A DNA stretch of 64,000 bases from an uncultured Gammaproteobacteria bacterium (GTDB taxonomy: Bacteria; Patescibacteriota; Patescibacteriia; S139-126), in NCBI GenBank assembly GCA_964620905.1, contig CAZUKA010000001.1, positions 222,524 through 286,523 on the forward strand, given 5' to 3'. A model generated the notes under the pieces. It saw only the letters and a list, made by a program, of their open reading frames with translations, had not been told where the DNA came from and ran no database searches. The position numbers and the translations under genes were made by a program. Of the stretch, positions 18,946 through 61,341 are shown in pieces. Within the stretch, counting starts at the first letter, position 1. Every line of letters begins with the position of its first letter.

Positions 18946-19503
18946 ATGAAAGCATTATTTGCCACTTGGTTGTTTATTTATTTACTGATCAACGGTTGCA
19001 CTATACGTTATACAGCTTCCCAACCACTTACCAATGAAGAACTTTCTAAATTAGTTCGCCACACAATCGTTGATATCTTATCTGACCACAATAAAAAATC
19101 AAACTCTGGGGGTTATGTCCATGACAAATCTGGTTTATTGTTTTTCTACCAGGCTGACCTAGATACAATTTTATTTGAATTTAGTGGTTTTATTAAAAAC
19201 AATGAGGTAAACCAAATTGATAGCGGGTATTTTAAAATGACAGTTTATGGTAAAAATTTTTATTTTTATATTATGGATAAAAATTTTTCCAGCCAAGACA
19301 TCAGTGCAATATATCAATATATAAATATCCAAGGTGACACCATAAGTTTACATTTCAACAACCAGCAAAGATCATTGTTAAAAAATAAATATTTTATTTT
19401 GGAAACTTATGCTTTTTATCTACTGGCTTTAAAAGAATTTTACAATCTTTCAGTACTTAAAATATATCTAACAAAAACCCCCAAAAATTTGGGGGTTTTA
19501 TAA
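18946..19503 (+). CDS. Hypothetical lipoprotein
   Basis: Signal peptide with lipobox (LINGC). 185 aa with no recognisable domain. Stop codon lies inside a terminator hairpin. Confidence 0.4.
   Translation: MKALFATWLFIYLLINGCTIRYTASQPLTNEELSKLVRHTIVDILSDHNKKSNSGGYVHDKSGLLFFYQADLDTILFEFSGFIKNNEVNQIDSGYFKMTVYGKNFYFYIMDKNFSSQDISAIYQYINIQGDTISLHFNNQQRSLLKNKYFILETYAFYLLALKEFYNLSVLKIYLTKTPKNLGVL
19474..19499. terminator. Bidirectional rho-independent terminator (lipoprotein gene on plus, alaS on minus)
   Basis: aaaaccccc-aaaaattt-gggggtttt, a G/C stem flanked by A-run and T-run, sitting between convergent genes. Confidence 0.6.
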
Positions 19504-19517
19504 TATAGTAATTTTAT

Positions 19518-21278
19518 TTAATTTCCCAATATAGCTTTAATTCTTCTCACCCCAGCTGAAGAAGCTTCTTCTTTACTAATTTTAAAGCTTACTAATTCAG
19601 CTGTATTATCTACGTGCGGTCCGCCACATAATTCGCGACTAAACCAATTATCTTCATCACCAACGGTGTAAACTTTTACTTTGGCACCATACTTTTGGGT
19701 AAATAACCCCAGTGCCCCTTTTTGTTTAGCTTCTTCCACAGTCATTTCGGTCCACCAAACCTTTAGTTTTTTATTAATCTGATCATTAACAATATCTTCC
19801 ACTTGTTTGATTTGTTCTGGTGTCATTTTTTCAGGATGAGAAAAATCAAAACGCAAACGATCTTTGGTAATATTTGAACCTTTTTGGGCAACATGTTCAC
19901 CTAATACTTTTCTCAACGCTGCCTGTAATAGATGAGTGGCTGTATGCAAACGTTTTACTTCATCACTATGATCGGCAAGGCCTCCAGCAAATTTTTGTTC
20001 TCCTCCAGCTCGGGAGAGCTCTTGGTGTACTTTAATTTTTTCATAAAATGAATCCAAATCAACCTCCACACCTAAACGCTTAATCTCATCAATGGGATAA
20101 CCATAGGTAGTATAAAGTTGGAAAGCTTCTTCACCAGTCAATTTACCATCACTGATAAATTGCTGGACTTTTTTTTCTCCTTCATTTAAAACTTTACTGA
20201 ATTTTTCTTCTTCAATAGAAATTTCAGATATTATTTTTTGTTGATTTCTTGAAAGTTCCTGATAAATATCTTTCATTGTTTCAATAACCACTTTACCTAT
20301 ATTTTGTAAAAAATTATTTTCAATTCCCAATTCCCTGCCCTGTCTAATAGCTGTCCTAAGTAAGCGTCTGACCACATAACCTTGATCAACGTTTGACGGT
20401 ACTACGCCCTGATCATCACCCATAATCATTACCGCTGCCCTGACGTGGTCAGTTATGATTCTAATAGCACGAGTATTGGTTTTATCTCTGGCTAATGATT
20501 CAATTTTATTATAAATTGGTCGCAAAGTATCAACCTCATAAACATTTTTATAACCATTAAGTACTGCCACTGTCCGTTCCAAACCCATTCCAGTATCAAC
20601 ATTTTTTTGCTGAGCGGGAAGGTATTTACCTGTCTCATCTTTGTAATACTGCATGAACACGTCGTTCCAAATCTCTACCCAATTTGCTTCATCATTACCT
20701 GGATTTGATTCAAGTGGCGGTAAACCTTCACCTACCCAATAAAACATTTCGGTATCAGGACCACAGGGGCCAGTTTTGCCAGCTGGTCCCCACCAATTAT
20801 TTTTCTTCGGCAGATAAGCAATTTTGTGTTCGGGTACACCCAATGCTAACCACTTAGCAGCTGATTCCTCATCTTTTGGTGCATCTTCATCACCAATAAA
20901 TACTGAAACGGCTAATTTAACTTTATCAAGTCCAAGCCAATCAGCTGATGTTAAAAATTCCCATGAATACTCAATAGCTTCATTTTTAAAATACTCACCT
21001 AGTGACCAATTGCCAAGCATTTCAAAAAAAGTAAGATGGGTATCATCTCCCACTTCATCAATATCACCGGTACGGATACATTTTTGATAATTTACCAATT
21101 TATTACCACTAGGGTGTTTTTCACCCATTAAATAAGGAACTAACGGGTGCATCCCCGCGGTAGTAAAAAGTACAGTTGGATCATTTTCTGGCAATAAAGA
21201 GGCGCCATCAATAATAACGTGATTTTTACTCACAAAAAAATCCAGATATTTTTGTCGTAGTTCTTTGGTAGTTATCAT
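19518..21278 (-). CDS. alaS: Alanyl-tRNA synthetase, short form (catalytic + editing domains, no C-Ala domain)
   Basis: Class II motifs in MITTKELRQKYLDFFVSKNHVIIDGASLLPENDPTVLFTTAGMHPLVPY. Editing-domain zinc ligands present (HTATHLL ... CGGPHV). Only 586 aa versus ~870 in canonical AlaRS. Confidence 0.8.
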   Translation of the reverse strand: MITTKELRQKYLDFFVSKNHVIIDGASLLPENDPTVLFTTAGMHPLVPYLMGEKHPSGNKLVNYQKCIRTGDIDEVGDDTHLTFFEMLGNWSLGEYFKNEAIEYSWEFLTSADWLGLDKVKLAVSVFIGDEDAPKDEESAAKWLALGVPEHKIAYLPKKNNWWGPAGKTGPCGPDTEMFYWVGEGLPPLESNPGNDEANWVEIWNDVFMQYYKDETGKYLPAQQKNVDTGMGLERTVAVLNGYKNVYEVDTLRPIYNKIESLARDKTNTRAIRIITDHVRAAVMIMGDDQGVVPSNVDQGYVVRRLLRTAIRQGRELGIENNFLQNIGKVVIETMKDIYQELSRNQQKIISEISIEEEKFSKVLNEGEKKVQQFISDGKLTGEEAFQLYTTYGYPIDEIKRLGVEVDLDSFYEKIKVHQELSRAGGEQKFAGGLADHSDEVKRLHTATHLLQAALRKVLGEHVAQKGSNITKDRLRFDFSHPEKMTPEQIKQVEDIVNDQINKKLKVWWTEMTVEEAKQKGALGLFTQKYGAKVKVYTVGDEDNWFSRELCGGPHVDNTAELVSFKISKEEASSAGVRRIKAILGN

Positions 21279-21333: not shown

Positions 21334-22413
21334 TTATTTTATAATCCCTCCCCCCAAACAGACCTCACCTTGATAAAACACCACGCTTTGTCCACTAGTT
21401 ACTGCCCGTTGCGGTTGTTTAAAATTGACTACTAATTTATCTTTTTTATTATTTTTATAATCAATTTCTGCCTCTTGATCAGATTGGCGATAACGGATTT
21501 TTGCACTCAAAATCATTGGCAAATCTGGTTTAGGGATTAACCAATTTATCTGTTCAGCGATTAATGATTGTTTATAAAGTTTAGGATGATGAGCACCTTT
21601 GACCACATAAAGAATATTTTTTTTTATATCTTTAGCAACTACATACAAAGGCAGTCCAGTGCCACCAACTTTTATACCCCGTCTTTGCCCAATTGTGTAC
21701 CAAGAGAGTCCCTCGTGACGGCCAATAATCTTATTATTCTCCGCATCAATAATATTACCAGGTACAGCTTTTATATACTGGGACAAAAATAAACGTAAAT
21801 CAACCTCGCCAATAAAACATATACCTTGCGAATCTGGTTTATCTTTGGTTGGCAATTTCATCTTTTTAGCCATGGCTCTCACTTCGGGTTTATTATAATC
21901 TCCGACAGGAAATAATACCTTTTGTAAAACTTCTGGATTTATACCATACAAAAAATATGATTGATCTTTATTTTGATCTATACCTTTTAAAAGCTGAGTA
22001 GTTGATTTAATTATTTTTGTCCTGGCATAATGTCCGGTGGCAATAAAATCTGCACCTAAACTAATTGCTTGATCAAAAAATAATTTAAATTTTATTTCTG
22101 AGTTACATAAAATATCAGGGTTTGGTGTCCTGCCAGATTTGTATTCAGTAAAAAAATAATCAATCACCCGACGTTTATACTGTTGTTCAAAATTAAAAAC
22201 CTCCAAAGGAATAGATAATCTTTTAGCTACACTTTGAGCATCTTTAAAATCTTGTTGCCACGGACAGTCATCAAGCACTGCAAAACTGTCAGACCAATTC
22301 TTCATAAATACCCCGATTACTTCATAACCTTGTTTTTTTAGGAGTGCCGCAGCTACTGATGAATCAACACCACCTGACATTCCCACTACTACTTTTCCTT
22401 TTTTTCGGACCAT
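21334..22413 (-). CDS. mnmA: tRNA-specific 2-thiouridylase
   Basis: PP-loop SGGVDSS in KVVVGMSGGVDSSVAAALLKKQGYEVIGVFMKNW. Length and C-terminal features fit MnmA. Confidence 0.8.
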   Translation of the reverse strand: MVRKKGKVVVGMSGGVDSSVAAALLKKQGYEVIGVFMKNWSDSFAVLDDCPWQQDFKDAQSVAKRLSIPLEVFNFEQQYKRRVIDYFFTEYKSGRTPNPDILCNSEIKFKLFFDQAISLGADFIATGHYARTKIIKSTTQLLKGIDQNKDQSYFLYGINPEVLQKVLFPVGDYNKPEVRAMAKKMKLPTKDKPDSQGICFIGEVDLRLFLSQYIKAVPGNIIDAENNKIIGRHEGLSWYTIGQRRGIKVGGTGLPLYVVAKDIKKNILYVVKGAHHPKLYKQSLIAEQINWLIPKPDLPMILSAKIRYRQSDQEAEIDYKNNKKDKLVVNFKQPQRAVTSGQSVVFYQGEVCLGGGIIK

Positions 22414-22420
22414 ATGTACC

Positions 22421-23224
22421 CTACTTTAGCAAATAAACAAAAACCAAAAGTATAGTCCCCAATGCCAATCGGTACCAAACAAATATCTTTAAATTTCTAG
22501 TTGTTAAAATTTTCAACAACCAAAAAATTGCTAAATAACCGGATAAAAAACTAAAAATAAAACCAACAATAAGATTACTTATAATAATTTTTTCTGGCTG
22601 ATTGATCAATTCAAATAAATTTAAAAAACCGGCTGCGGCAATCAAGGGAATGCTCATAATAAAACTAAATCTAGCTGCCAATGATCTAGATAATGATTGA
22701 AATAAACCAGCAGTAATAGTGATACCACTCCGTGAAGTCCCGGGTAGTAAGCTTAGTACTTGGAAAAAACCAATTATTAAACCTTGACGCCAATTTAACT
22801 CAGTTAATTGTTCTATTTTTTTTGGCTGCTTTTCTATATAAATATCCGACCACCACATAACTAGTGCCCAAAATATTAAATTAAAAAGTACTAAACCTGG
22901 TAATCTTAAATCTTCACTAACAAAATCTTTAATTAAAAAACCAATCAGGCCAGCCGGAATTATGCTAATTAGAACAATTAGCATAAACTTCTTACTAATT
23001 TTATCTTGGGGGTTGAACACGCCTTTAATTAAAGAGTAAATATCCTGCCGAAAATAAATTAAAACCGCTAGTAATGTACCCAAATGTAAAAATGCATCAA
23101 AAGCCAGGCCAAAATCAGGGATTTGAGTAAATTTTTGTAAAAGCAATAAATGACCAGATGATGAAATTGGTAAAAATTCAGTCACACCCTGAACTATTCC
23201 CAAAATTATTGTTTGCCACCACAT
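22421..23224 (-). CDS. uppP: Undecaprenyl-diphosphate phosphatase
   Basis: MWWQTIILGIVQGVTEFLPISSSGHLLLL (BacA/UppP signature), 8 TM helices, second motif PGTSRSGITITAG. Confidence 0.85.
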   Translation of the reverse strand: MWWQTIILGIVQGVTEFLPISSSGHLLLLQKFTQIPDFGLAFDAFLHLGTLLAVLIYFRQDIYSLIKGVFNPQDKISKKFMLIVLISIIPAGLIGFLIKDFVSEDLRLPGLVLFNLIFWALVMWWSDIYIEKQPKKIEQLTELNWRQGLIIGFFQVLSLLPGTSRSGITITAGLFQSLSRSLAARFSFIMSIPLIAAAGFLNLFELINQPEKIIISNLIVGFIFSFLSGYLAIFWLLKILTTRNLKIFVWYRLALGTILLVFVYLLK

Positions 23225-23320: not shown

Positions 23321-24817
23321 TTATTTAATTTCAACAATCACATTTTTCTCCAATGCTTTAAGAGCGAGTTTAATCCGATCCTGACTTTGTGCATAAAAAG
23401 TAAACAATTTATCTTTTACTCTCACTTTATCCTGATAATGAACATGCATATGAATTCCTGCGATTTTATCACTAGGTGCACCTAAATTTACACAAATTTC
23501 ATTGATAGCTTTGTTATTTATAAATACTACCCGACCATTTTTCTTGGCATGAATTTCATAATTCAGTGCCCCCAGTGCCACTTCATCGGAATCAATATCG
23601 GCATTACCTCCTTGAGCAGCAATAATCTTTTTCATTTGCCTATTAGCTTCACCACTAATTAATTGACGTTGAGCAATCTTTTCTCCTTGACCCAACTTAC
23701 AGAATCCAGCTAACTCTAGTAAATAGCCAGATAGCCTAACTGCTTTCTTTTCAAGATCTACTGGTCGTAATTCTTTTTGTTGTAATACTCTTAGTACATC
23801 TCTTGCTTCCAAAGCTGGTCCAATACCTCGACCGACTGGTTCAAATGATGGAGTTCTAACAACTTTCACCTTCATACCAAACTTTTTTGCTAAATACAAA
23901 AACTTTTTTTCAATTTCATCAGCAAATTTATTTTTTGGTATTTTGGTAGTTGGTCCGATTGGTAAATCAAGAACTAAATAATCAACCCCCATAGCCACCT
24001 TTTTGGCCATAATAGAGACTATCATTTTGTCATACGGTTCAATACCCAGTGGTCTAGTTATCCGTACGATTTTATCATCGGCTGGAGCTAAATTTACCCC
24101 ACCCCCCCAAACCATACAAGCATTGACCCGTTTTACAATCTTTTTTATTTCCGTCATAGAAAATGTTACTGGAGCTAAAACTTCCATTGTATCAGCTGTT
24201 CCTGATGGAGAAGTAATCGCCCGGCTGGAAGTTTTGGGAATGTACAATCCAAGCGATGAAACAATTGGTACCACGACCATTGTAGTTCGGTTCCCTGGCA
24301 GCCCTCCAACTGAATGTTTATCAACTGCTGGTACGTTCAAATTTAGCATTTCACCTGTTTCGGCAACTGCTTTTGAAGTATAGTAAAGTTCGTCTAAGGT
24401 ATAATCACGTAAATAACTGGAAGCTACATAATAAGTTGTCTCTATTTCTGAAAATCTATCATCAACAATATCTTTAATTATTGAATAGATTTCGTCGTAA
24501 TTTAATTTTTTACCAAAAATTTTTTTTCTAATTGCCTGAATGGATGGTGGCCGCGAAACAATCTCCACTTCGACTATTTCACTATCCAGAGAAGATTTTT
24601 TATTCCATAACTCTTTAAATAAACCAACTTCACCTGGTTTTACTTTGCTGGTAGTAGTTCTAATTTCAGCAATTCTTTTTAAACGATTATTCCAGGTTAA
24701 CTGAATTCTATCACCAGCCATTACTCCATAATACTCTGCTTCCTCCTCATTTATCACTACTACTGGTTCGTTGCCAGTAGAAAAATCCAATTTTTTTGAT
24801 TTTAAGAAAAAGGACAT
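23321..24817 (-). CDS. deoA: AMP phosphorylase (archaeal-type thymidine-phosphorylase family, DeoA-like)
   Basis: About 500 aa with an N-terminal extension preceding the glycosyl-transferase family-3 fold (HSVGGLPGNRTTMVVVPIV ... GIEPYDKMI). Immediately downstream of RuBisCO in the same operon. Confidence 0.7.
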   Translation of the reverse strand: MSFFLKSKKLDFSTGNEPVVVINEEEAEYYGVMAGDRIQLTWNNRLKRIAEIRTTTSKVKPGEVGLFKELWNKKSSLDSEIVEVEIVSRPPSIQAIRKKIFGKKLNYDEIYSIIKDIVDDRFSEIETTYYVASSYLRDYTLDELYYTSKAVAETGEMLNLNVPAVDKHSVGGLPGNRTTMVVVPIVSSLGLYIPKTSSRAITSPSGTADTMEVLAPVTFSMTEIKKIVKRVNACMVWGGGVNLAPADDKIVRITRPLGIEPYDKMIVSIMAKKVAMGVDYLVLDLPIGPTTKIPKNKFADEIEKKFLYLAKKFGMKVKVVRTPSFEPVGRGIGPALEARDVLRVLQQKELRPVDLEKKAVRLSGYLLELAGFCKLGQGEKIAQRQLISGEANRQMKKIIAAQGGNADIDSDEVALGALNYEIHAKKNGRVVFINNKAINEICVNLGAPSDKIAGIHMHVHYQDKVRVKDKLFTFYAQSQDRIKLALKALEKNVIVEIK

Positions 24818-24866
24818 GTCTACAAATTATAAATTATAAATTTTAAATTATTAATAAAATAATTTA

Positions 24867-26159
24867 TTAATTTTTCACATTTTGCCAATATTCAAGAGCA
24901 GTTTTGAGTTCTGGTCTGTTTTTGGCATAAGAATGTAAGTTTGCTCCCAAAGAAGCTGCTTCAACTGCATCTCTGGCAGCTACTGCCCCTGCAAAAGAAC
25001 CATCCGGATGACCATGAATACCACCGCCAAAATTGATAATTAAATTACGGCCTAAAATTTTAATAAGTTCTGATGCTAATCCAGGATGCAAACCCCCAGA
25101 AGCGATTGGCATCACCGGTTTTATTTTTGACCAATTTTCTCGCAAGTAATCTATCTCGCCGGCATCTTCTCTTAAAAAATCATTTAGGGTATCTACTTCA
25201 TGTGCGGTTCCTTCCATTTTACCCACCACCGTTCCTGTATGTAATTGATCAATACCAGCCAATCTTGATAATTTTGCTAAAACCAACATGCTCATTCCCT
25301 GGGTTGGATCTTTGGTAAACATACTATGACCCGCTCGGTGTCCATGTAAAATCAAACCTAAATTTTGTTTTCTTATTGATTGAATAGCTGACCATCCCAT
25401 TGCCACAATATCAACCATCACTACCCGTCCGCTTCTTTTTTTAACATATTTTGCTCTTTGTAAAGCAATGTCATAAGGACCAGTGATATTGAAAACAAAA
25501 ACTTTTCTTTCACCTGTCTCTTTTTCTACTTTTTTTCTGACCGCAATCAATTTATCAACTCTTTCATAAAAATTGTTAAACGTCAGCGAAGTAAGATTTT
25601 CATCATCTTTTATTATATCCACGCCCCCCCGCCAAGTTTCATAAGCTACCGCAGCAGTTTCTGCAACATCCAAACCAACTTTTGGTTTTATAATACTTCC
25701 TACTAATGCACGATTATAAACTTTCATAATTTTTCTTATCCCCCCAATCCCATGAAATGGACCTAAACAAAAGTTAATATATTTTTTTGGAAAAGCTATA
25801 TCTTCCAGCCGCAAACGTTCCACAATTTTCATACTAAATATATTGCCACCCAAAAAAGACAATAATTGTGGTAAATTACCAATTTCCGACAGCGCCAAAG
25901 GATATGCAACTTTTATAAAACCACGCCGCTTATCGACTTCATAAACATGAGGAGTCAATTTTATTTTAGTAGCTTCAGACAATGTTTCTAAGTGCGTCCA
26001 GGTACCAATCGATGATTCTCCCGCAATCGCTTCTGCTACTGTAGTAAAGGTCTGCCCTTTAGCGGGTAAAATATGATAAGTAACTAAAAACTCCTTGTCT
26101 AAATTTGGTTTATAATGTTGATCAATAAATCCTTGGTAAGAAGTGGTAAATTTTTTCAT
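24867..26159 (-). CDS. rbcL: Ribulose-1,5-bisphosphate carboxylase large subunit, form II/III-like
   Basis: Active-site motifs: KPKVGL (carbamylated Lys), GGVDIIKDDE, HGHRAGH, GGGIHGHPDG. About 430 aa, as for form III and II/III enzymes. Confidence 0.85.
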   Translation of the reverse strand: MKKFTTSYQGFIDQHYKPNLDKEFLVTYHILPAKGQTFTTVAEAIAGESSIGTWTHLETLSEATKIKLTPHVYEVDKRRGFIKVAYPLALSEIGNLPQLLSFLGGNIFSMKIVERLRLEDIAFPKKYINFCLGPFHGIGGIRKIMKVYNRALVGSIIKPKVGLDVAETAAVAYETWRGGVDIIKDDENLTSLTFNNFYERVDKLIAVRKKVEKETGERKVFVFNITGPYDIALQRAKYVKKRSGRVVMVDIVAMGWSAIQSIRKQNLGLILHGHRAGHSMFTKDPTQGMSMLVLAKLSRLAGIDQLHTGTVVGKMEGTAHEVDTLNDFLREDAGEIDYLRENWSKIKPVMPIASGGLHPGLASELIKILGRNLIINFGGGIHGHPDGSFAGAVAARDAVEAASLGANLHSYAKNRPELKTALEYWQNVKN

Positions 26160-26767
26160 AATTTATCAATTAATTGTTTTAAATTGCTTATAACCAAATC
26201 TGCTGATATTGGTTTAATATTTGTATTATCTCGATTATACCAACAGGTTTTAAAATTTATTTTCTTGGCGGCTCTGATATTTTCTATTTTATCATCAATA
26301 AACAAAGTTCGGGAGGGATTTAGTTTATATTTTTTTATCAGTTCCCGATAAATTTTTAGATCTGGTTTTTTGACATAATATTGCCAAGAATAAACTTTGC
26401 CTAAAAAATATTTTTGGAATTTAAATCTTTTTTCTAGATACTTTGACCATTCGCGAGGAATATTTGACAAAATAAAAAGGTTTTTATTTTGTTTACGAAA
26501 TAATCTTACTACTCTATGAAAATCTTTATCTAAATAATGTCTTAGATAAAATTTTTTCTCCAAAACAGTAAATTTTTTACCAACCCCCATCAACTTCCAA
26601 AATTTTTTTTGATTAATTTTACTAAGTGCATAATCATGATAAATTTTTCGGCAATATGAATGCTGCTTGTGTTGCGGTAAAATGGGGAAAAGTATATTTC
26701 TAATATTTTGTCCTTCGGAAATAATTACTCCATAAATATCAAACACAATATTTTCTATTTCAACCAT
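26156..26767 (-). CDS. HAD-superfamily hydrolase-like protein (haloacid-dehalogenase-type DxYG motif I)
   Basis: Motif I IVFDIYGVI (Asp nucleophile, D+2 replaced by Tyr as in L-2-haloacid dehalogenase-type members), motif II FILSN, motif III K in VKKPD, motif IV LFIDDKIEN. Overlaps rbcL by 4 bp and e2b2 by 13 bp. Confidence 0.45.
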   Translation of the reverse strand: MVEIENIVFDIYGVIISEGQNIRNILFPILPQHKQHSYCRKIYHDYALSKINQKKFWKLMGVGKKFTVLEKKFYLRHYLDKDFHRVVRLFRKQNKNLFILSNIPREWSKYLEKRFKFQKYFLGKVYSWQYYVKKPDLKIYRELIKKYKLNPSRTLFIDDKIENIRAAKKINFKTCWYNRDNTNIKPISADLVISNLKQLIDKL

Positions 26768-27681
26768 AAATATCTTTTTACAATGCTGGCTACTTGTTTT
26801 GGTTTTATCACGCCAAACTCTGTAATTAGACCACTGATCAACTTTGCTGGTACCCGATCAAAAGCGTAGTTCAATATTCGCACTTGCGCAGGTTTATTTG
26901 GCCAAATTTCTTTGTCTGATCTCATTTCAATTTTTACATTATTATGGTAGTCAAACTTCAATAAGCTGGTGGCAACAAAAAACGGTATTTTATTTAGATA
27001 AGCACTGGCCGCAATATCATAAGTTCCAATTTTATTGATAATACTACCATCTTTTTTTATAGCATCCGCTCCCACCACTATAGCTTGTATCATTAAATCT
27101 TTTCCAGAATATGGTGAGATTAAAAAACCACTCGCGCTATCTGCAAGCTGAGTAACAGGTATGTTTAAACGAATTAGATCTTTAGCAGTCAGTCGACCTT
27201 GGTATAAAGGTCTAGTTTCATCAGCAAAGACATGTAACTTAGGGTTTTTTTTATGTAAACTGGCAAATATTTTAACAACTATTGATGAATGACAATGGGT
27301 CAAAATATTATTGTATTTTTTCAAAGCCAAAACACCAAACTGGATTATGGAATTTTCGTTTTTTTTGATTAAGAGTTCATATTCCCCTAACCATTTTTTC
27401 AACAAAAATTTTAATTTTTTTAAATCAGTATTAGTTGGGATAGTAGAGATTTTTTGATGAAGAAATAGATATAAACTCTGGGCATACAATCCAGTCGGTC
27501 GAGCATAAGCTAAATTTTTAGTTGCTATTAAAAAATCGATTTTGAATGATTTAAAATTTTTATCAGTAGTAGTGTTGAGCAAAGACAATAATGTCTTGAT
27601 GGTTTCTTTAGCAATATTAGTTGCACCCTGAATTTCCAAATTTTTAATTTTTTTGACAACTTTGTTTATATTGATTGACAT
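26755..27681 (-). CDS. e2b2: Ribose-1,5-bisphosphate isomerase (eIF-2B alpha/beta/delta family)
   Basis: eIF2B-like fold (ADETRPLYQGRLTAKDLIRLNIPVTQLADSA ... AIVVGADAIKKDGSIINKIGT). Operon partner of RuBisCO and AMP phosphorylase. Confidence 0.7.
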   Translation of the reverse strand: MSININKVVKKIKNLEIQGATNIAKETIKTLLSLLNTTTDKNFKSFKIDFLIATKNLAYARPTGLYAQSLYLFLHQKISTIPTNTDLKKLKFLLKKWLGEYELLIKKNENSIIQFGVLALKKYNNILTHCHSSIVVKIFASLHKKNPKLHVFADETRPLYQGRLTAKDLIRLNIPVTQLADSASGFLISPYSGKDLMIQAIVVGADAIKKDGSIINKIGTYDIAASAYLNKIPFFVATSLLKFDYHNNVKIEMRSDKEIWPNKPAQVRILNYAFDRVPAKLISGLITEFGVIKPKQVASIVKRYLWLK

Positions 27682-27690
27682 GTTAATAAA

Positions 27691-29478
27691 CTAAAATTTA
27701 ATCTTATCACCGGGTTTTATTTTTTTGTCCAGTTCGGTGGTGGAAACAGGAAGAGTCTTTTTTTCTTTTGCCTTGATTTGCTCTGGTTGATTTTTAACTA
27801 AAATTTCCAATCTTCCCAACGCTTCACTAAGTGAAATTTCGGCTGGAGTTTCTTTGACCACATCTTCTACTAAAATTTTTTGACGTGACGGCTGACTAGA
27901 TTTGATCGGATGGAATGATTTTTTATTTTCTATTTTTGGCCAAGTTATCAATTTTTGCTTATATAACTTTAAGCAATCTGGACAAAATACTGGTCTGATA
28001 CCATCGGGTTGAAATTTAATCTTAACTTCCTTTTGACAATTCGAGCATTGGGCTGTATAAAAATTTTCGTTTGTATTATTTTTAGTTGTTATTATTTTCT
28101 TGGTTTGCAACTTACTGTCATCAGAAAAATTTATTTGCTTATTTTTTGTTTTTACCAACTCTGAACTTTGACTAAGTTCCTCGTTATTAAAACCAGCCCA
28201 TCGCGCAATTTTGTCTTCAATAACCTCTCTTTTGGTGGCATACCTTTCTCTGGTAACTTTGATAATTTTTTCTTCGTTCAGTTGATCTTTTGGTAGTGGA
28301 GGCAAAGTTGTTGCTGAAAAAGGCGTGGAAGCAAGACCATCAATCATTAATTTCAAATAAATATCATATTTCGCCAAATTTACTAAATCTGTCTCATCAA
28401 ACGTAGGGGTAAATTCTTTTGCTAAAAATTCAGCATCATCTGCACCTACTCGAAAAGTTACTAAAGTGCCAACATTACCAAAAACCGCGTCCCGCACGCG
28501 AGTTGAATCAGTGGTTACCAATTGGGCGATATATTGATGGGCAATAATCAAATTCAGACGGTACTTTCTGGCCTCCGACAAAATATCAGCGAAAGAATTG
28601 GTTACAAAATTTTGAAATTCATCAACATACAGATAAAAGTCCTCTCGTTTATTTTCTGGTATATCTACTCTACCCATTGCTGCCATTTGGATCTTAGTTA
28701 TCATCATGGCTCCCAGTAAAGCCGAAGCGTCTTCGCCAATTCTACCCTTTGAAAGATTGAGTAATAATATTTTCTTATTGTCCATAATTTCTCGTAAATC
28801 TATGGTCGATTTAACCTGACCAACAATATTGCGAATTAACGACAAAGATAGAAACTGACCAACTTTATTTTGAATTGGTGAAATAGCTTCCACCTGAAAC
28901 TGTTGGTTATATTTGGGATATTCTTGAGTCCAAAAACTCTTTACCACCGGATCGTTTATTTTATCAACGACTTTTTTTCGATACTCTTTATCAACTAATA
29001 TTCTAGTAACACCCAATAAAGTAGCCCCGGGGTAATCAAGTAATGCCAAGATGGCATTGCGTAATAAATATTCCAGACGCGGCCCCCAGGAGTCAGCCCA
29101 TAATTTTTTAAAAATGCCAATCAATCCAGACGCTACCAGATTTTTTTGATGTGGTTCGTCGACAGATTCTAAAATATTGAAAGCTAATGGATAATCAACG
29201 TCAGATGGATTAAAATAAACTACATCATTTATTCGCTGGGCTGGTATCGCATTTAATAAATCTTCAACCAATTCCCCATGCGGATCCACCACAGCTAAAC
29301 CATTTCCATTGTAAATATCTTGAATGGCCATATTCTTCAATACTTCTGATTTACCCGAGCCAGTTTTACCAATGACATACATATGACGACGACGGTCGTC
29401 TTTTTTTATACCAAATTCGCGCGTTTGATTACGAAAATTTGTTTTAGCAAAATAAGTTATTTCTGGATGGAAATTCAT
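27691..29478 (-). CDS. TraG/VirD4/HerA-superfamily P-loop ATPase with C-terminal zinc ribbon
   Basis: Walker A HMYVIGKTGSGKSEVL, Walker B LYVDEFQNF, C-terminal CSNCQ-x17-CPDC ribbon and Lys-rich tail. No N-terminal TM segments. Confidence 0.55.
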   Translation of the reverse strand: MNFHPEITYFAKTNFRNQTREFGIKKDDRRRHMYVIGKTGSGKSEVLKNMAIQDIYNGNGLAVVDPHGELVEDLLNAIPAQRINDVVYFNPSDVDYPLAFNILESVDEPHQKNLVASGLIGIFKKLWADSWGPRLEYLLRNAILALLDYPGATLLGVTRILVDKEYRKKVVDKINDPVVKSFWTQEYPKYNQQFQVEAISPIQNKVGQFLSLSLIRNIVGQVKSTIDLREIMDNKKILLLNLSKGRIGEDASALLGAMMITKIQMAAMGRVDIPENKREDFYLYVDEFQNFVTNSFADILSEARKYRLNLIIAHQYIAQLVTTDSTRVRDAVFGNVGTLVTFRVGADDAEFLAKEFTPTFDETDLVNLAKYDIYLKLMIDGLASTPFSATTLPPLPKDQLNEEKIIKVTRERYATKREVIEDKIARWAGFNNEELSQSSELVKTKNKQINFSDDSKLQTKKIITTKNNTNENFYTAQCSNCQKEVKIKFQPDGIRPVFCPDCLKLYKQKLITWPKIENKKSFHPIKSSQPSRQKILVEDVVKETPAEISLSEALGRLEILVKNQPEQIKAKEKKTLPVSTTELDKKIKPGDKIKF

Positions 29479-29481
29479 AAT

Positions 29482-31014
29482 TTAAAAAGGTAAATTTTCC
29501 GGCGCTTGTCCGGGAGATGTTGTTTGATCTGCAGATAAGTTTTCTGTTTTCTGTTTTTTATTTCCGTCATACTCAAACTGATTTTTTTCTGTTGGTAAAA
29601 CCACTTCAAAATCAGTTTGATCAGAAGATGAAATCCCATTAAAAATAGGTTTCGATTTAATTTCATTTTTAACCTCGCCAGGGATATTTACTGTTATGGG
29701 CTCTCCACCACGTTTCTGATCTACCGGTAACTGGGCAGGTGGCTCTGATCGTTTGCTTTCAACTTTTTTAACCAAAGGTGCTTTCACGGTTAAAGCAGGA
29801 AAATGATAAATAGTTGCTAACTCTTCAATATTTAAGATAAATGGTTTATTGCCAAAACGTAAATCGCCAATTCTTTTCTTAAAAGCTTTCATGATCTTGG
29901 TTTGCTTTTTAGCTAAACGTTTTTCCACCCGCCAATAATCAGCAGAGGTAGTTGTAGTTTTTACCTTAGCGAAATAGTTCATGTTTAATGTATTAAATTG
30001 GTTTAAACCTCCCATGATCGGAGCTACTCCCCGATTCTTATCAAAAATTTCACGTCGGGCTAAATAAATAAATCTACCTTTGACAAAAAAACCAATTTTC
30101 GACATTTTTTCTTCAATCGCTTGTAAAACATCTTTTTGACCACTAGTTAAATATAACATTTTATTTGGTTCATCACCTTTGCTTTTTTCATCAGCTGTAC
30201 CTTCAGCTTTAACAACAAAAGTATCTCCCAAAAATTTCATAAAAGACAAAAAAGGAATGGTTAAATAATAACCTAAATCTTTCTGCTGAGTTTGCTTTTC
30301 ACCAATAATTTTTTTTACTTCCTTTTCGCACTCTTTTTTCCAACTATCTCCCGTGGGTGTAATTATCCATTGCAAACAAGCAAATTCGCCTCCTTTTAAA
30401 TGTGACATCACCTCCAATAAAGATGAGATTGGATCTTTTATTTCTTGTGATAAAGTATGTTCAAAACGCGGATAGGTTCTAATAGGATAAGGGTTCTTAT
30501 TCCCCAATTTTATATCAGTGCCCCAAAGCTCATAGGTATCATTAGGAAATTCATCGGGAAAATTTTGGGCATAATCACTAAATGGCATAATTTCAGCGTC
30601 CGGATACTGGGCAAAAAAAGCCGCTTCTACCACGTCTTTATATTTTTCTGGAAAATGAACTAAATATTGGATATAACCTTCCAGACTGACCAATTCTAAA
30701 CTAAAAGGTAACTGATGCTGACCCAACCAATATTTTTCATATAAATTAGGTCCACTAAGAGTCCCGGCTAAAGTTGCGAAAACTTGTTCTACTGCTTTTG
30801 GTGATTGCTCGTTGTTTTTGGGAATATCAACCGCCAACAACATAAATTTGGTCGCACGTAAAAATTTTTCCCGACGCGCTGGTAACCAGAACCATTTAAT
30901 AAAAAAACTTAAAATAAAAAAAAGAAAAAATATTGAAAAAATTCCCAATAAAATTGGTCCGGCAACTGAGATAATTTTAGGATCTACATTTAGTGGTGAC
31001 AAATCGATGGTCAT
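29482..31014 (-). CDS. Hypothetical single-pass membrane protein (operon partner of the ATPase)
   Basis: 510 aa. One N-terminal TM (ISVAGPILLGIFSIFFLFFILSFFIKWFWL), then a large domain with no recognisable motif. 4-bp gaps to both neighbours. Confidence 0.4.
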   Translation of the reverse strand: MTIDLSPLNVDPKIISVAGPILLGIFSIFFLFFILSFFIKWFWLPARREKFLRATKFMLLAVDIPKNNEQSPKAVEQVFATLAGTLSGPNLYEKYWLGQHQLPFSLELVSLEGYIQYLVHFPEKYKDVVEAAFFAQYPDAEIMPFSDYAQNFPDEFPNDTYELWGTDIKLGNKNPYPIRTYPRFEHTLSQEIKDPISSLLEVMSHLKGGEFACLQWIITPTGDSWKKECEKEVKKIIGEKQTQQKDLGYYLTIPFLSFMKFLGDTFVVKAEGTADEKSKGDEPNKMLYLTSGQKDVLQAIEEKMSKIGFFVKGRFIYLARREIFDKNRGVAPIMGGLNQFNTLNMNYFAKVKTTTTSADYWRVEKRLAKKQTKIMKAFKKRIGDLRFGNKPFILNIEELATIYHFPALTVKAPLVKKVESKRSEPPAQLPVDQKRGGEPITVNIPGEVKNEIKSKPIFNGISSSDQTDFEVVLPTEKNQFEYDGNKKQKTENLSADQTTSPGQAPENLPF

Positions 31015-31018
31015 GGTT

Positions 31019-32137
31019 TTAAGAGGCAGCTAATTTATATGTGCCATCGGCGTTTTTAGTAAATCTTTTTTTATTCATTAGAGCCAAGGCAATAGTACTT
31101 TCCTTAACCAAGCGCTTCTGTAAAACTTCTTTTATTATTTCCTGCTTAGTCAATGGTTCAATGGAATTCTGAATAATTTCTTTTATCACCTCGGCTACAA
31201 CTCCTGGTTTATAACCCCATTCTTTCAAAGCATAAATTCCGCGACCAATCAACACATATCTACTATTATCTAAAATTAGTTCATTGTGGATAGTGGCCGC
31301 ATGCGCTTTCTTGCCGTCAAAATTTGCTTCGTTTATTTTTGTTGCTATTTCACGAAAATGCATTGGTTGACCGCCATGTTTGAGGACTAAATAAATTTTA
31401 TCATTCATCCGACGCGGTGAAATTAAAGGCCAATTATAAAAACCCCAATCGCCAAATGGATTGACTTTCAATTTTTTAGATAATTTGATGTAAGACAAAA
31501 AAATATCAAGATTTATTTTTTCTTGCCATTTCATACCAATCTCATCTTTTTTAAATTGTTGCCACAATTCTTCTGTAGTAAATAAACGATTGGCTCGTTT
31601 TATCATTTCTTCGGTTGCCAATATTACTTCGGATAAAATTTGCGAATTAAAATCCGGCAGTTGCCAACCAGCTTTGAAATTTTTATTTTCTCTTATAGGT
31701 AAAAACTGATCTTTGGCCAGTTCTAAAAAGAAAACAACAAAATTATCGTCTATTTTTTCATTAACCAATTCCTTTACTTTTCTAATTAATTCATTAGCTT
31801 CAATTACTCCACCTAAATCACGAATTATCTGTTCAACCACAATCAATGAATGGTTTAATTCTGTATTATCACGCAAAAATTTTTTTAGTTGTTTAATGCT
31901 TACTACTTCAATCTGTCGCACCCTCTCTCTAGTGATATTATAAACCTTGCCAATATCCTCCAAAGTATAACGTTTAGCTTCAATATTTAATCCATGACGT
32001 AAAGCAATCACATCTTTTTCCCTTGTTGGTAGTAGAGACAAGATTTCGTTGATAATAATTTTCGGATTAAATAAAGCTGCTTCTTCTTTAATTTGAGTAG
32101 CAATTACTTTTTCTAAAATTGAATCATTATTTGTCAT
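31019..32137 (-). CDS. Sigma-70 region-4 domain protein with C-terminal HARE-HTH-like domain
   Basis: N-terminus TREKDVIALRHGLNIEAKRYTLEDIGKVYNITRERVRQIEVVSIKQLKKF is a region 4.2 HTH. C-terminus PMHFREIATKINE ... YVLIGRGIYALKEWGY resembles the HARE-HTH of the RNAP delta subunit. Confidence 0.55.
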   Translation of the reverse strand: MTNNDSILEKVIATQIKEEAALFNPKIIINEILSLLPTREKDVIALRHGLNIEAKRYTLEDIGKVYNITRERVRQIEVVSIKQLKKFLRDNTELNHSLIVVEQIIRDLGGVIEANELIRKVKELVNEKIDDNFVVFFLELAKDQFLPIRENKNFKAGWQLPDFNSQILSEVILATEEMIKRANRLFTTEELWQQFKKDEIGMKWQEKINLDIFLSYIKLSKKLKVNPFGDWGFYNWPLISPRRMNDKIYLVLKHGGQPMHFREIATKINEANFDGKKAHAATIHNELILDNSRYVLIGRGIYALKEWGYKPGVVAEVIKEIIQNSIEPLTKQEIIKEVLQKRLVKESTIALALMNKKRFTKNADGTYKLAAS

Positions 32138-32168
32138 ACTATTACATTAATAATACCCTAATATTATT

Positions 32169-32197
32169 AGTATACCAAATTTTTGCCAATCTGTCAA
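32169..32197 (-). promoter_or_regulatory. Sigma70-type promoter with extended -10 for the 32137..27691 operon
   Basis: Minus strand reads TTGACA (plus 32192-32197), a 17-nt spacer, then TGgTATACT (plus 32169-32174 is the -10). About 30 nt upstream of the ATG at 32137. Confidence 0.5.
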
Positions 32198-32232: not shown

Positions 32233-32252
32233 TCCACGGCTATACGGCCGTG
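32233..32252 (-). terminator. Hairpin downstream of the EamA-like gene (probable terminator/insulator)
   Basis: ccacggct-atac-ggccgtgg, an 8-bp GC-rich stem followed on the minus strand by a T-rich tract. Confidence 0.4.
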
Positions 32253-32345
32253 GTATCTATAAAACTAGTATTGACTAAAATATACTATCTAAAAGAAAAA
32301 TTCCCTGATTAATTATAAATTAAATATTTAATCTATCTAGTTGGT

Positions 32346-33753: not shown

Positions 33754-34482
33754 TTATTGCTTAGTTAGATTTATCAATTCCACCCAAGAATCATAAGGCA
33801 CTACTCCAGATATTTTTTCACCGTTGATAAAAAAAGTAGGTGTTGCTTCTACACTTAAATCAAAACCATCACTCTGGTCTTGAGCAACTTCATTTTTATA
33901 TTTTTCTGTCTCCAAACATTCTTTAAAAACATTCATATCCAATTGCAATCTTTCGGCATAAACAAATAAATACCCCAAGTCTAACTTTGATTGATTTTGG
34001 AAAAGTAGATCATGGTATTCCCAAAATTTTTCTTGGTCATAAGCACACTGTGCAGCTAAAGCTGCTGTTCTAGCTTGAGGATGAATATCATCCAACGGAA
34101 AGTCTCGATAAATATAAAAAACATCATTAGGATAATTGCGCAATAAATCCCTGACAATGGTATGTGCTTGCGAACAATAAGGACATTGAAAGTCAGAAAA
34201 TTCTACTATCCGTAAAGGAGCATTTGGGTTGCCTAAATGTGGATCAGTAGTTGTGTAAATTTTTTCCAAATAACTTTGTCCATCAATATTTTGGGTTGTA
34301 TTTATATTTAAACCACTTGGCGATTTTGAAGCGAGAAATGCTAGTAGAATTGAGATACTTACCCAAATTATGACTATAGCCAAAATAAACAAAATAAACC
34401 AAAAACGCCAACGATAAATTAATTTTTTTTTCTGCTGTTTTTCCTGAGCTTGTGTAGTATTGGTATCTGTTTCAACTGGCAT
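33754..34482 (-). CDS. Membrane-anchored DsbA-like thiol:disulfide oxidoreductase
   Basis: N-terminal TM, thioredoxin-fold CPYC active site (FSDFQCPYCSQ). Confidence 0.65.
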   Translation of the reverse strand: MPVETDTNTTQAQEKQQKKKLIYRWRFWFILFILAIVIIWVSISILLAFLASKSPSGLNINTTQNIDGQSYLEKIYTTTDPHLGNPNAPLRIVEFSDFQCPYCSQAHTIVRDLLRNYPNDVFYIYRDFPLDDIHPQARTAALAAQCAYDQEKFWEYHDLLFQNQSKLDLGYLFVYAERLQLDMNVFKECLETEKYKNEVAQDQSDGFDLSVEATPTFFINGEKISGVVPYDSWVELINLTKQ

Positions 34483-34581
34483 ATTATTTTTATAATTTTA
34501 CTTTAAATTTATTATACCAAATTACCTGTAAACCAACAAAAACCCCGACGTTAGTCGGGGTTTCGTTATTATCTTATTTTG

Positions 34582-35334
34582 TTACTGTAATAGTGGATCA
34601 ATAATTGATTTAACATTAGCAATAGGTAAGGCACCACTAATTGGCACTCTTTGTCCATCACGGGTTAATACTACTGAATAAGGCGTGCCTTGTCCGCCGC
34701 TATTGATGGCGTCTTGATATTGGTTTTGGACTTTGTCTTTGAAAGTGTTAGCTTTGACACAATCGTTAAATTTAGTTTCATCCACACCAACATTTTTAGC
34801 AAAGGCAACTAAATCATCAACTTCTTGTTCATAAAGCAGGTCTAAATATTGCCAAAATACATCATTACCACCCAATGAACCAACGCATTCTGCCGCTTCG
34901 GCTTTTGCTCTAGCTTGAGGGTGAAGTGAATCAAGAGGGAAATGACGATATACCCAAGCAACTTTACCAGCATAATCACCTAGCACCTGTTTCATAGTCG
35001 GATGGAAACGAGAACAGAAAGGACAATCAATATCTGAAAATTCAACGATTACCACTTGTGCGCTATCAATGTCACCTCGAATATAATCTTCACTACTAAC
35101 CGGTTGAATATTTATCTGACCTGAGGGAGCCGCTTGGTTGTCGTCATTCGCTGCAGGTTGGGTGGGTTGATTAAATGCAGCTAATGATTTATCGTTTTTA
35201 GCTGTATTACCTTGACCATTAAATAACAACCAAAAAAAACCAATACTAAAAATTACTAAAAAAGTGGCAATTATACCTAAAACAAAAGATTTGCCAGGAC
35301 CTAAAAATTCAAATAAACTCGGTTTTTTATCCAT
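34582..35334 (-). CDS. Membrane-anchored DsbA-like thiol:disulfide oxidoreductase (paralogue)
   Basis: Start taken at MDKKPSLFEF (ATG 35334). TM anchor, CPFC active site (FSDIDCPFCSRFHP). Tandem paralogue of the preceding gene. Confidence 0.65.
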   Translation of the reverse strand: MDKKPSLFEFLGPGKSFVLGIIATFLVIFSIGFFWLLFNGQGNTAKNDKSLAAFNQPTQPAANDDNQAAPSGQINIQPVSSEDYIRGDIDSAQVVIVEFSDIDCPFCSRFHPTMKQVLGDYAGKVAWVYRHFPLDSLHPQARAKAEAAECVGSLGGNDVFWQYLDLLYEQEVDDLVAFAKNVGVDETKFNDCVKANTFKDKVQNQYQDAINSGGQGTPYSVVLTRDGQRVPISGALPIANVKSIIDPLLQ

Positions 35335-35547
35335 ATATGAATTTAAATTAATTTTTATAATTAAACTATTTGATAGTATAACAAATATTTTATTTTGGTG
35401 CAATTATGTGTGGATAAAAAATCAATTGTTTAAAATTATTAAAAATTCTTGGTTCAATATTCCAGTATATTAATAATTTCTCCAACTATACATTGACAAA
35501 AGAAATGAGTTATTTTATATTTAAATCCTATCAAACAGGAGGGCTCG

Positions 35548-35800: not shown

Positions 35801-35875
35801 GGCCCGTTCGTCTAGTGGCTAGGACGCATGGTTCTCATCCATGTAACAGGGGTTCAATTCCCCTACGGGCTACCA
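35801..35875 (+). tRNA. tRNA-Glu (anticodon CTC), CCA encoded
   Basis: Manual fold: acceptor GGCCCGT/ACGGGCT, D-arm GTCT-AGTGGCTA-GGAC, anticodon stem CATGG/CCATG with loop TTCTCAT (CTC), T-arm AGGGG-TTCAATT-CCCCT, 3' CCA. Closely resembles bacterial tRNA-Glu. Confidence 0.8.
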
Positions 35876-56724: not shown

Positions 56725-57230
56725 CTTAATACTTTTATAATATCATCGGTATTATATTGATTTGGGCCTACACCGTCAGGGCCAAATGATCCAATCACCG
56801 CCACTACTTGGCAACTGCTACCGCCAGCACAAGGTTCATCATCTTCATTAATATAATAATCAGTATCAAAAAAATAATCATTTCCCCAGGCATCTGTTGG
56901 TATGCTGACTAAATATGGTCCTTGCCAGCCAAAATAATTGCCATCGGTGGCAACCAAACCAGCAGCTGGGGTAGATAAATCCCAAATTTCATTACCATTG
57001 CCTTGATTTATCTCTTCAGCGGTCTGATGCCCTGGCCATTCTCCAGTATCAATCATCAACTGACTAAAGGTTTTATATAAAGTATCAATTTCACTTTGCG
57101 CTTTGGCAATTTTAGCTTTTTCTCTGGCTGATTTAACTGACGCCACGGTGATGGTTGCTAAAGTACCAATAATAGCAATGACGACTAAAACTTCTATTAG
57201 AGTAAAGCCTTTTTTATTTATTTTTCTCAT
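56721..57230 (-). CDS. Type IV pilin / pseudopilin (prepilin-type N-terminal cleavage-methylation domain)
   Basis: KKGFTLIEVLVVIAIIGTLATI class-III signal peptide (G^FTLIE). 169 aa. Start and stop each overlap pgk and eno by 4 bp. Confidence 0.75.
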   Translation of the reverse strand: MRKINKKGFTLIEVLVVIAIIGTLATITVASVKSAREKAKIAKAQSEIDTLYKTFSQLMIDTGEWPGHQTAEEINQGNGNEIWDLSTPAAGLVATDGNYFGWQGPYLVSIPTDAWGNDYFFDTDYYINEDDEPCAGGSSCQVVAVIGSFGPDGVGPNQYNTDDIIKVLR

Positions 57231-59397: not shown

Positions 59398-59486
59398 TGC
59401 TATTCCTCATTTTTATTTATGAATTGTTAATTAAATAATAAAAAATTATAGCATAATTGTATTTTTTGTCAATCCTCAAAAAATAA

Positions 59487-61340: not shown

Positions 61341-61341
61341 A

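Follow-up and report, generated by a model that had tools for sequence, protein, structure and literature searches.

Much of bacterial diversity belongs to the Patescibacteria (the Candidate Phyla Radiation, CPR), whose conserved and lineage-enriched proteins are mostly without known function. Orphan homologues of the type IV coupling protein (T4CP) are already known throughout the group: VirD4-type homologues were found in 2,918 of 3,035 Patescibacteria genomes (96%), 148 of the 5,713 copies lay near virB4, VirB4 occurred in 2,417 genomes (80%), relaxases were rare, and a possible exaptation of these T4CPs was proposed (Quinonero-Coronel et al. 2025; PMC12102498). How are these orphan proteins built, where do they come from, and what do they do? 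We addressed these questions at a locus on the minus strand (positions 27691-32197) of a 64,000-nucleotide stretch of DNA, hereafter the window, from contig CAZUKA010000001.1 (positions 222,524 to 286,523) of assembly GCA_964620905.1, a genome named as an uncultured Gammaproteobacteria bacterium and placed in Patescibacteriota by GTDB. The locus holds three co-directional open reading frames (ORFs):

31019-32137, minus strand: g1, 372 aa, sigma-region-4 and HARE-HTH protein
29482-31014, minus strand: g2, 510 aa, membrane-anchored protein assigned to DUF8128
27691-29478, minus strand: g3, 595 aa, predicted T4CP-type ATPase

We read g2 and g3 together as a domesticated, vertically inherited, split T4CP that acts as a membrane-tethered nucleic-acid motor, and put the probability of this joint claim at roughly 60%. 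Its first part, the identity of the pair as a domesticated split T4CP homologue, is very probable; its second part, the mechanism of a membrane-tethered nucleic-acid motor, is tentative and falls a little short of even odds. On this reading, the orphan T4CP of 96% of Patescibacteria genomes would gain an anatomy, that of a two-gene machine, DUF8128 would be identified as the detached, membrane-anchored N-domain of a T4CP, and the split protein would trace back to coupling proteins that monoderms carry on conjugative plasmids. Points that appear to be new are the division of the protein over two genes, the identification of DUF8128, the ancestry in plasmids and phages, the conserved gene order and the separation of g1 from the ATPase; a literature search on DUF8128, on HARE-HTH domains combined with sigma regions and on HARE in Patescibacteria found nothing on a g1-g2-g3 module.

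A coupling-protein ATPase without a membrane segment

The product of g3 matched TrwB_AAD_bind (E 3e-12; 46.4 bits, cut-off 20.5; residues 24-346 aligned to positions 9-312 of the 387-position profile), TraG-D_C (30 bits, cut-off 22), T4SS-DNA_transf (27.8 bits, cut-off 20.1) and DUF87, all above the Pfam cut-offs, and also zf_Tbcl_2. The matches to the T4CP profiles cover the region of the all-alpha domain, and the nearest solved relatives by sequence are TrwB and DotL. Within the ATPase core (residues 24-430), the Walker A motif GKTGSGKS (residues 37-44, nt 29347-29370) and the Walker B motif YLYVDEFQNF (residues 282-291, nt 28606-28635) are near-invariant in 56 homologues. The C-terminal part carries a treble-clef zinc ribbon (CxxC-x17-CxxC, residues 478-502, nt 27973-28047), which is found in 38 of the 56 homologues, and a Lys-rich tail (residues 505-595, nt 27694-27966), with 19 Lys in the 93 aa after the ribbon. 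No transmembrane (TM) segment was detected in g3, the maximum 19-residue Kyte-Doolittle hydropathy being 1.39.

Judged from its sequence, g3 is thus a VirD4/TrwB-type T4CP ATPase that lacks a membrane segment. This confirms the original prediction, which was made from the letters of the window and had described a P-loop NTPase of the FtsK/HerA/VirD4 superfamily with a zinc ribbon, a Lys-rich tail and no N-terminal TM segments. It is a distant member of the group: its top NCBIfam match, the VirD4-like conjugal transfer CD1115 family, reached 52 bits against a cut-off of 250, and it scored far under the cut-offs of the equivalog-level T4CP models. T4CPs are membrane-tethered and usually handle DNA. 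They share with g3 the P-loop domain with its all-alpha insertion and intact Walker motifs, whereas their anchor usually stands on the same polypeptide and the TM helix here stands on the separate g2; the C-terminal zinc ribbon and basic tail are additions of g3.

An alternative within the same ATPase superfamily is that g2 and g3 form a translocase of the FtsK/SpoIIIE kind, which would segregate chromosomes at the division site. The very strong conservation of g3 would suit such a role, as would the presence of mraZ, a Methyltransf_5 gene, a DivIC-family gene, a penicillin-binding protein gene and a Mur ligase gene 4-13 kb upstream in the window. However, the FtsK_SpoIIIE profile matched g3 at the P-loop only and under its cut-off (E 0.015, 15.2 bits, cut-off 24), neither the gamma (KOPS-reading) domain nor a multi-pass N-terminal domain was found in g3, and the division and cell-wall cluster is not a recurrent neighbour in other loci. 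In addition, a second T4CP-like paralogue of Southlakia epibionticum, SEML1_0142, whose fold is FtsK-like, is essential, while the probable g2/g3 orthologue of the same organism, discussed below, is not (Wang et al. 2023; PMC10633639). We consider a segregation translocase very unlikely, and g3 is no canonical FtsK/SpoIIIE.

The proposed membrane-anchored partner

The protein encoded by g2 had no match in the local Pfam copy, so that its membership of DUF8128 (PF26449) rests on its homologues: most close homologues carry a precomputed PF26449 match, and the genes adjoining g1 homologues are labelled PF26449:DUF8128. On this basis we assign g2 to DUF8128. The local NCBIfam and PADLOC collections gave no usable match to it. 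After a short N-terminus, g2 has a single strong TM helix (residues 17-44, nt 30883-30966; Kyte-Doolittle hydropathy 2.9). Arg and Lys residues follow this helix, which under the positive-inside rule would place most of the protein in the cytoplasm. The presumed cytoplasmic portion comprises an alpha/beta domain (residues 55-412, nt 29779-30852), a disordered linker (residues 413-504) and a conserved C-terminal motif PP/PE-NLP-F (PxNLPF, nt 29485-29505).

The AlphaFold model of g2 (predicted local distance difference test, pLDDT, 71) offers a clue to the nature of this domain. Its 12 best matches in the Protein Data Bank (PDB) were all TrwK/VirB4 chains of R388's type IV secretion system (T4SS) (E 1e-4 to 3e-3, probability 0.99-1.0), and no other fold came near them. 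Among viral structures, Foldseek matched the model to gp156 of Bacillus phage G (1e-18), to a protein of phage JL (3e-15) and to gp155 of phage G (1e-6), the last of which is annotated as VirB-like. The predicted cytoplasmic domain thus resembles the N-terminal domain of VirB4 in its fold. The order of an N-domain and a P-loop domain in g2 and g3 is also that of VirB4/TrwK, but it is spread over two genes, there is no similarity to g2 at the sequence level, and g3 is nearer to T4CPs than to VirB4. Moreover, Patescibacteria have a bona fide VirB4 as a separate protein, encoded at another place in the genome (PMC12102498). The first description of g2 as a 510-aa, single-pass membrane-anchored protein was accurate, and its label of unknown fold can now be corrected.

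Fused relatives in phages and conjugative plasmids

Relatives that carry both g2 and g3 on one chain were found in phages, plasmids and Patescibacteria. In PHROG 5156 (824 positions), g2 matches positions 74-330 and g3 positions 407-813. In gp156 of Bacillus phage G (825 aa), residues 33-320 align with g2 and residues 381-804 with g3; this protein differs from the pair in being fused and phage-encoded and in lacking both the N-terminal TM helix and the zinc ribbon. PHROG 5156 also occurs in phages JL, CP-51, Shanette, CampHawk and SP82G. The phage link of g2 came from PHROGs, the profile search and Foldseek; tblastn with g2 against the phage collection gave no match. As an observation on phage G itself, the VirB4-like gp155 lies directly upstream of the fused gp156 (L083:2196-6338).

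Plasmids provided the second set of single-chain relatives. The g2 profile matched the N-terminal 300-400 residues of a 904-aa Bacillus plasmid protein (E 2.7e-13), of an 812-aa Embleya plasmid T4CP (E 2e-5) and of a 1193-aa Haladaptatus protein (E 9e-3), and the C-terminal halves of all three are g3-like according to the g3 profile. These plasmid-borne proteins (the Bacillus one being the DUF87 protein of Bacillus sp. BC1-43) hold both modules in the same order as g2-g3, and differ from g3 in being fused and in sharing 27-33% identity with it. The Bacillus and Embleya genes adjoin genes for a replication-relaxation family protein, PrgI, a VirB4-like ATPase and an NlpC/P60 cell-wall hydrolase, and occupy the coupling-protein position of conjugative clusters. 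Priestia megaterium has a frameshifted fused copy of g2+g3, and one Patescibacteria locus (L047) has a fused g2+g3 ORF. Outside the CPR, the nearest relative of g3 (39% identity) is encoded on a Sulfitobacter plasmid and stands alone, with 395 aa; it lies among transposases, has no g2-like partner and is uninformative.

The two Patescibacteria genes together therefore correspond to proteins that form a single chain in Bacillus phages and on the conjugative plasmids of Gram-positives, actinomycetes and haloarchaea. Their arrangement agrees with this. Neighbourhoods were compared over 80 fetched loci, and g3 follows g2 directly in 50 of the 66 with enough downstream sequence, at a median distance of 5 nt (56 loci). 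It had been suggested that g2 could be the membrane partner of the ATPase, which has no TM segment of its own, and the natural fusions, the short gap and the adjacency back this proposal.

Programmed readthrough or a recent fission was also considered. The genes are in the same frame in the window, and over the 56 loci the three frame relations occur 17:18:21, i.e., without in-frame enrichment. Since the frame relation is random, readthrough from g2 into g3 was rejected, as was recent fission.

A conserved chromosomal block

A scan with one genome per species found a g2 relative in at least 591 species-level genomes. Most of these are labelled as Patescibacteria/CPR; many are labelled as uncultured Gammaproteobacteria or other taxa, and we take these non-Patescibacteria labels to be those of mislabelled metagenome-assembled genomes. 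An exhaustive profile search returned 3,293 clusters at 50% identity, and the best 150 of these 3,293 were all of split-form length.

Clustering of neighbours revealed a recurrent block across classes, (secA)-secD-secF-g1-g2-g3-(bacA)-mnmA-alaS. The complete g1-g2-g3 trio was present in 31 of the 61 loci with sequence on both sides, and secD-secF stood immediately upstream of the block in 45 of the 80 loci. In Magasanikbacteria, g2 occurs alone, after secDF. The window retains the last three members of the block, in block order, behind an inserted AMP-salvage cluster described below:

22421-23224, minus strand: bacA/uppP, synteny anchor
21334-22413, minus strand: mnmA, synteny anchor
19518-21278, minus strand: alaS, synteny anchor

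The genes of this block differ in how strongly they are conserved. Compared with the window copies, g3 has a median identity of 59% (range 51-71%), g1 of 40% and g2 of 39%, and in the same loci mnmA has 48%, alaS 53% and bacA 42%. g3 is thus more tightly constrained than a tRNA synthetase, and its place in the housekeeping synteny is fixed.

These data bear on the view that the locus belongs to a mobile conjugative element, a prophage or an anti-phage defence island. The homologues on conjugative plasmids and in Bacillus phages speak for it, and PADLOC returned partial matches of g3 to mad8 (E 3.6e-14), HerA and PDC-M14A and of g1 to MzaA. However, the defence-model matches are limited to the P-loop or the region-4 domain: the HerA match covers about 40 residues, the Pfam DUF87 match is limited to residues 30-92 (P-loop), and the MzaA match comprises region 4 only (model positions 601-661 of 683). 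Besides the mad8-like g3, no other MADS gene is present at the locus, and no NurA, Sir2 or DUF4297 partner gene is adjacent to g3, which argues against membership of a HerA-based defence system. The defence-island candidates (mad8, HerA, MzaA) were rejected on gene context and partial coverage.

The view of a mobile element fares no better. The annotated ORFs of the 64-kb window are housekeeping genes and include no relaxase, VirB4, integrase or phage gene, and neither a relaxase nor a mating-pair-formation gene recurs among the neighbours over the 80 loci. The same housekeeping neighbours accompany the genes across hundreds of divergent genomes. Since this synteny extends across Patescibacteria and g3 is more conserved than the tRNA-synthetase and tRNA-modification genes (alaS and mnmA) of the same loci, the locus is neither a mobile element nor a defence island, and an explanation of this kind is largely refuted and hardly tenable. 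The linkage is conserved and not embedded in an integrative conjugative element or prophage. Taken as a whole, the original prediction stood in its domain calls for g1 and g3, in g2 as a partner and in the non-conjugative nature and neighbourhood of the locus, and fell short where it proposed a defence module, a DNA-binding factor belonging to the ATPase and an operon of three genes.

Two variations of the block were observed. In five loci, the periplasmic P1 region of SecD contains an inserted Rotamase domain, a peptidyl-prolyl isomerase of PpiC type (L003:2144-3808, L050:2532-4577, L089:4282-5943, L090:4187-5869 and L091:4255-5943). In one of them, the interval between g3 and mnmA (L089:11322-14787) encodes LiaF-like membrane proteins, a dual-specificity phosphatase and an OLD-family (AAA_15 + TOPRIM) nuclease, which looks like a small variable or defence insertion inside the conserved block.

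A putative membrane-tethered motor

We propose that g2 would supply the single membrane helix and a cytoplasmic module like the VirB4 N-terminal domain, and that g3 would supply the P-loop motor with its all-alpha insertion and, in about two thirds of lineages, the zinc ribbon and basic tail. Translation of the two genes would be coupled, and their products, in a 1:1 ratio, would most likely form a ring ATPase tethered to the membrane, which would bind nucleic acid on the cytoplasmic side and move it. A substrate of this type is supported by the T4CP ancestry and by the zinc ribbon and basic tail. Such a motor may serve the chromosomal, relaxase-less T4SS that Patescibacteria encode elsewhere, or another envelope channel.

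Several points weigh against this proposal. T4CPs can also carry proteins, so that a nucleic-acid substrate for g2/g3 is not assured. As for g2, its likeness to the VirB4 N-terminal domain is at the level of the fold, with a TM-score of about 0.35 over the whole chain. Alignment of the g2 family by hhalign with an 847-aa Bacillus plasmid protein and with gp155 of phage G, both VirB4-like, gave no signal, the g2 alignment, searched as a profile against PDB sequences, returned nothing relevant, and the CagE_TrbE_VirB profile had no match in the Pfam search of the locus proteins. As these sequence tests of the VirB4 link failed, the link rests on the predicted structure. In addition, T4CP homologues occur in 96% of genomes and VirB4 in 80%, an argument that some copies, at least, work in the absence of a T4SS.

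Further points come from genetic data on S. epibionticum, whose T4SS is essential and has no recognisable coupling protein or relaxase (Wang et al. 2023; PMC10633639). In this organism, the gene for a protein with a sigma region 4 and a HARE-HTH domain, SEML1_0294, adjoins SEML1_0293, which encodes a 921-aa protein of a core, Patescibacteria-enriched family with TrwB_AAD_bind at residues 402-719 (PMC10633639). The length of this protein and the position of the domain indicate that it is apparently g2+g3 in fused form, and it is probably orthologous to them, given the published domain coordinates and the adjacency to the g1 orthologue. The two loci share the sigma-region-4 and HARE-HTH gene beside a T4CP-domain gene, and differ in the apparent fusion of the ATPase and in the other neighbours, which are CRISPR-Cas9 and topA in S. 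epibionticum. SEML1_0293 is non-essential for epibiotic growth, with 87-120 insertions, whereas the T4SS genes are essential (PMC10633639). The essential function of the T4SS therefore works without this ATPase.

The same data affect a further possibility, that g2/g3 is a substrate receptor for protein export. As some T4CPs do with protein effectors, it would bring effectors or envelope proteins either to the T4SS encoded on the chromosome or to a route associated with Sec. The T4SS of Patescibacteria lacks relaxases and is thought to have been repurposed, and the secD-secF pair so often found upstream of the block would fit the second route. On the other hand, conserved gene order explains the secDF adjacency equally well, the substrate suggested by the zinc ribbon and Lys-rich tail is nucleic acid, and the T4SS of S. 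epibionticum is essential while this ATPase is not. A role in protein export is improbable in our view, and we retain the nucleic-acid motor as the preferred reading of g2 and g3.

The sigma-region-4 protein g1

What, then, is the role of g1, the first gene of the locus? Its product matched Sigma70_r4 at residues 33-86 (nt 31880-32041; E 6.7e-13) and HARE-HTH at residues 248-307 (nt 31217-31396; E 2e-11), which bears out the predicted fusion of a sigma region-4.2 helix-turn-helix to a HARE-HTH domain. An array of winged helices spans residues 92-233 and a C-terminal winged helix residues 314-369. In the AlphaFold model (pLDDT 82), the N-terminal part superimposes on isolated sigma-A region 4 structures with about 1-2.7 A root-mean-square deviation and 36-44% identity, and the remainder resembles winged-helix arrays. 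Region 4 includes the 4.2 helix-turn-helix TLEDIGKVYNITRERVRQIE, whose recognition helix is nearly identical to that of primary sigma factors, and the motif TRERVRQIE is invariant across 17 g1 homologues.

Despite this likeness, g1 differs from sigma-70 in its additional winged helices and in the absence of regions 1-3: Sigma70_r4 was the only sigma domain that Pfam detected, and matches to NCBIfam sigma-factor models were confined to region 4 and far under the cut-offs. Without regions 1-3, g1 cannot act as a sigma factor. It also scored under the cut-off of TIGR04567, the RNA polymerase delta subunit of low-GC bacteria (36.2 bits, cut-off 42). In the delta subunit, HARE-HTH is N-terminal and the C-terminal tail is acidic, whereas in g1 the domain lies at residues 248-307 and the protein ends in a winged helix.

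One interpretation makes g1, g2 and g3 a single dedicated unit, in which g1 would load DNA onto the motor or control it, in the manner of relaxosome accessory proteins for plasmid T4CPs. The several DNA-binding-type domains of g1 are compatible with this, and so is its position: g1 stands directly upstream of g2 in 34 of the 61 loci with sequence on both sides, three of three reverse look-ups from g1 homologues found g2 and g3 adjacent, the gap between g1 and g2 is 4 nt in the window, and the adjacency is kept in S. epibionticum (SEML1_0294/0293). Adjacency alone is nevertheless weak evidence here, as the whole block is housekeeping synteny. The median gap between g1 and g2 in other genomes is 104 nt, which makes the spacing in the window an exception and leaves room for a separate promoter; g1 is missing upstream of 14 of 45 g2-g3 pairs; and no g1-like protein stands beside the fused plasmid and phage homologues examined.

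The genetic data point in the same direction. SEML1_0294, with Sigma70_r4 at residues 27-72 and HARE-HTH at residues 225-283, belongs to a core, Patescibacteria-enriched family, and transposon sequencing (Tn-seq) found it essential at all three time points (PMC10633639). With the g1 orthologue essential and the adjacent ATPase orthologue dispensable, g1 is unlikely to be a mere adaptor of the ATPase. This finding and the median gap weaken the claim that g1 is the DNA-binding factor of the module, and we regard the dedicated unit as unlikely. We favour instead a g1 that would have an essential function of its own, probably at promoter DNA or RNA polymerase, and would be a conserved neighbour of the split T4CP, co-transcribed with it here, not a dedicated subunit of the ATPase. 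It keeps the -35-recognition helix of primary sigma factors. The g1 family is thereby flagged as a separate core factor, essential in the sole genetically tractable Patescibacterium.

Promoter, transcription unit and the AMP-salvage genes

Two elements delimit the 5' end of the transcription unit:

32169-32197, minus strand: sigma-70-type promoter (-35 TTGACA at 32197-32192, 17-nt spacer, extended -10 TGgTATACT at 32177-32169)
32234-32253, minus strand: intrinsic-terminator-like hairpin (CCACGGC-N6-GCCGTGG) with an A/T-rich tail, AATTTAATTT, at the end of the EamA-family gene upstream

The hairpin (32253-32234) is the 5' boundary of the unit. The promoter had been proposed in exactly this form and is borne out: it scores 11/12 with the TG extension, is the top-scoring site of the region and lies about 30 nt from the ATG of g1. 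The whole window contains 3 TG-extended sites of at least 11/12, against 0.23 expected from shuffles. The other two, at 59472 and 17782 (both minus strand), are perfect sigma-70-type sites (12/12), which suggests that the organism uses near-consensus extended -10 promoters; in a comparison with the ORF list, the minus-strand sites at 59472 and 32197 precede minus-strand genes. No paralogue of g1, g2 or g3 was found elsewhere in the window.

The genes had been described as separated by 4 bp each. This holds for the g1-g2 junction (TAA-AACC-ATG, 4 nt) and not for the g2-g3 junction (TAA-ATT-ATG, 3 nt). The operon of three genes is probably too short as well. The gene for ribose-1,5-bisphosphate isomerase begins 9 nt past the stop codon of g3, terminator prediction found no intergenic terminator between g3 and alaS, and the genes that follow the isomerase gene overlap or abut each other. 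With the next gene so close and no terminator predicted, the unit probably extends past 27691, and the transcript probably continues into the salvage genes, which form a complete AMP-salvage set directly downstream of g3 (23321-27681, minus strand):

26755-27681, minus strand: ribose-1,5-bisphosphate isomerase (IF-2B family)
26156-26767, minus strand: HAD hydrolase
24867-26159, minus strand: form II/III RuBisCO
23321-24817, minus strand: AMP phosphorylase

This arrangement raises the possibility that g2/g3 is an import motor, and that nucleotides of host-derived DNA or RNA are burned by the AMP phosphorylase, ribose-1,5-bisphosphate isomerase and RuBisCO encoded downstream. Patescibacteria are not known to synthesise nucleotides de novo, and the zinc ribbon and basic tail of g3 would suit the handling of such a substrate. 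The salvage genes are 9 nt from g3 with no terminator predicted, and AMP phosphorylase or ribose-1,5-bisphosphate isomerase genes directly follow g3 in eight other loci (L005, L008, L021, L031, L032, L047, L090 and L091). In the six of these that were compared, the g3 copies are 56-83% identical to each other and 53-57% identical to the window copy, i.e., as divergent as the whole set.

Yet most loci have no salvage genes beside g3, and the adjacency may be inherited gene order. The T4CPs characterised so far export their substrates, and no T4CP is known to act as an importer. Moreover, S. epibionticum needs ComEC for transformation, and a mutant in comEC is viable (PMC12857230). An import motor is therefore quite doubtful.

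A bolder version of the split T4CP would make it a lineage-defining motor with a new job and no remnant of conjugation, either importing nucleic acid for salvage or, with g1, linking the membrane to RNA polymerase or the nucleoid. The chances of this version are low; if true, the motor would have a role in which no coupling protein is known so far.

Other features of the window

The remaining observations concern genes elsewhere in the window. Upstream of the locus, two tandem genes (33754-35403, minus strand) encode membrane-anchored DsbA/thioredoxin-like proteins of 242 and 273 aa, and a tRNA-Glu(CTC) gene follows this pair at 35801-35875 (plus strand). Among the few plus-strand genes, those at 44423-46558 (711 aa) and 18946-19503 (185 aa) had no Pfam match. 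Two tandem paralogues of cofactor-independent phosphoglycerate mutase (52247-55403, minus strand; 523 and 530 aa) adjoin the genes for enolase (55486-56724) and phosphoglycerate kinase (57227-58420). Finally, the interval 59721-63508 (minus strand) encodes a 7TM-type histidine kinase (59721-61340), a nitroreductase-like protein (61342-62424) and a ThiF-family protein (62414-63508).

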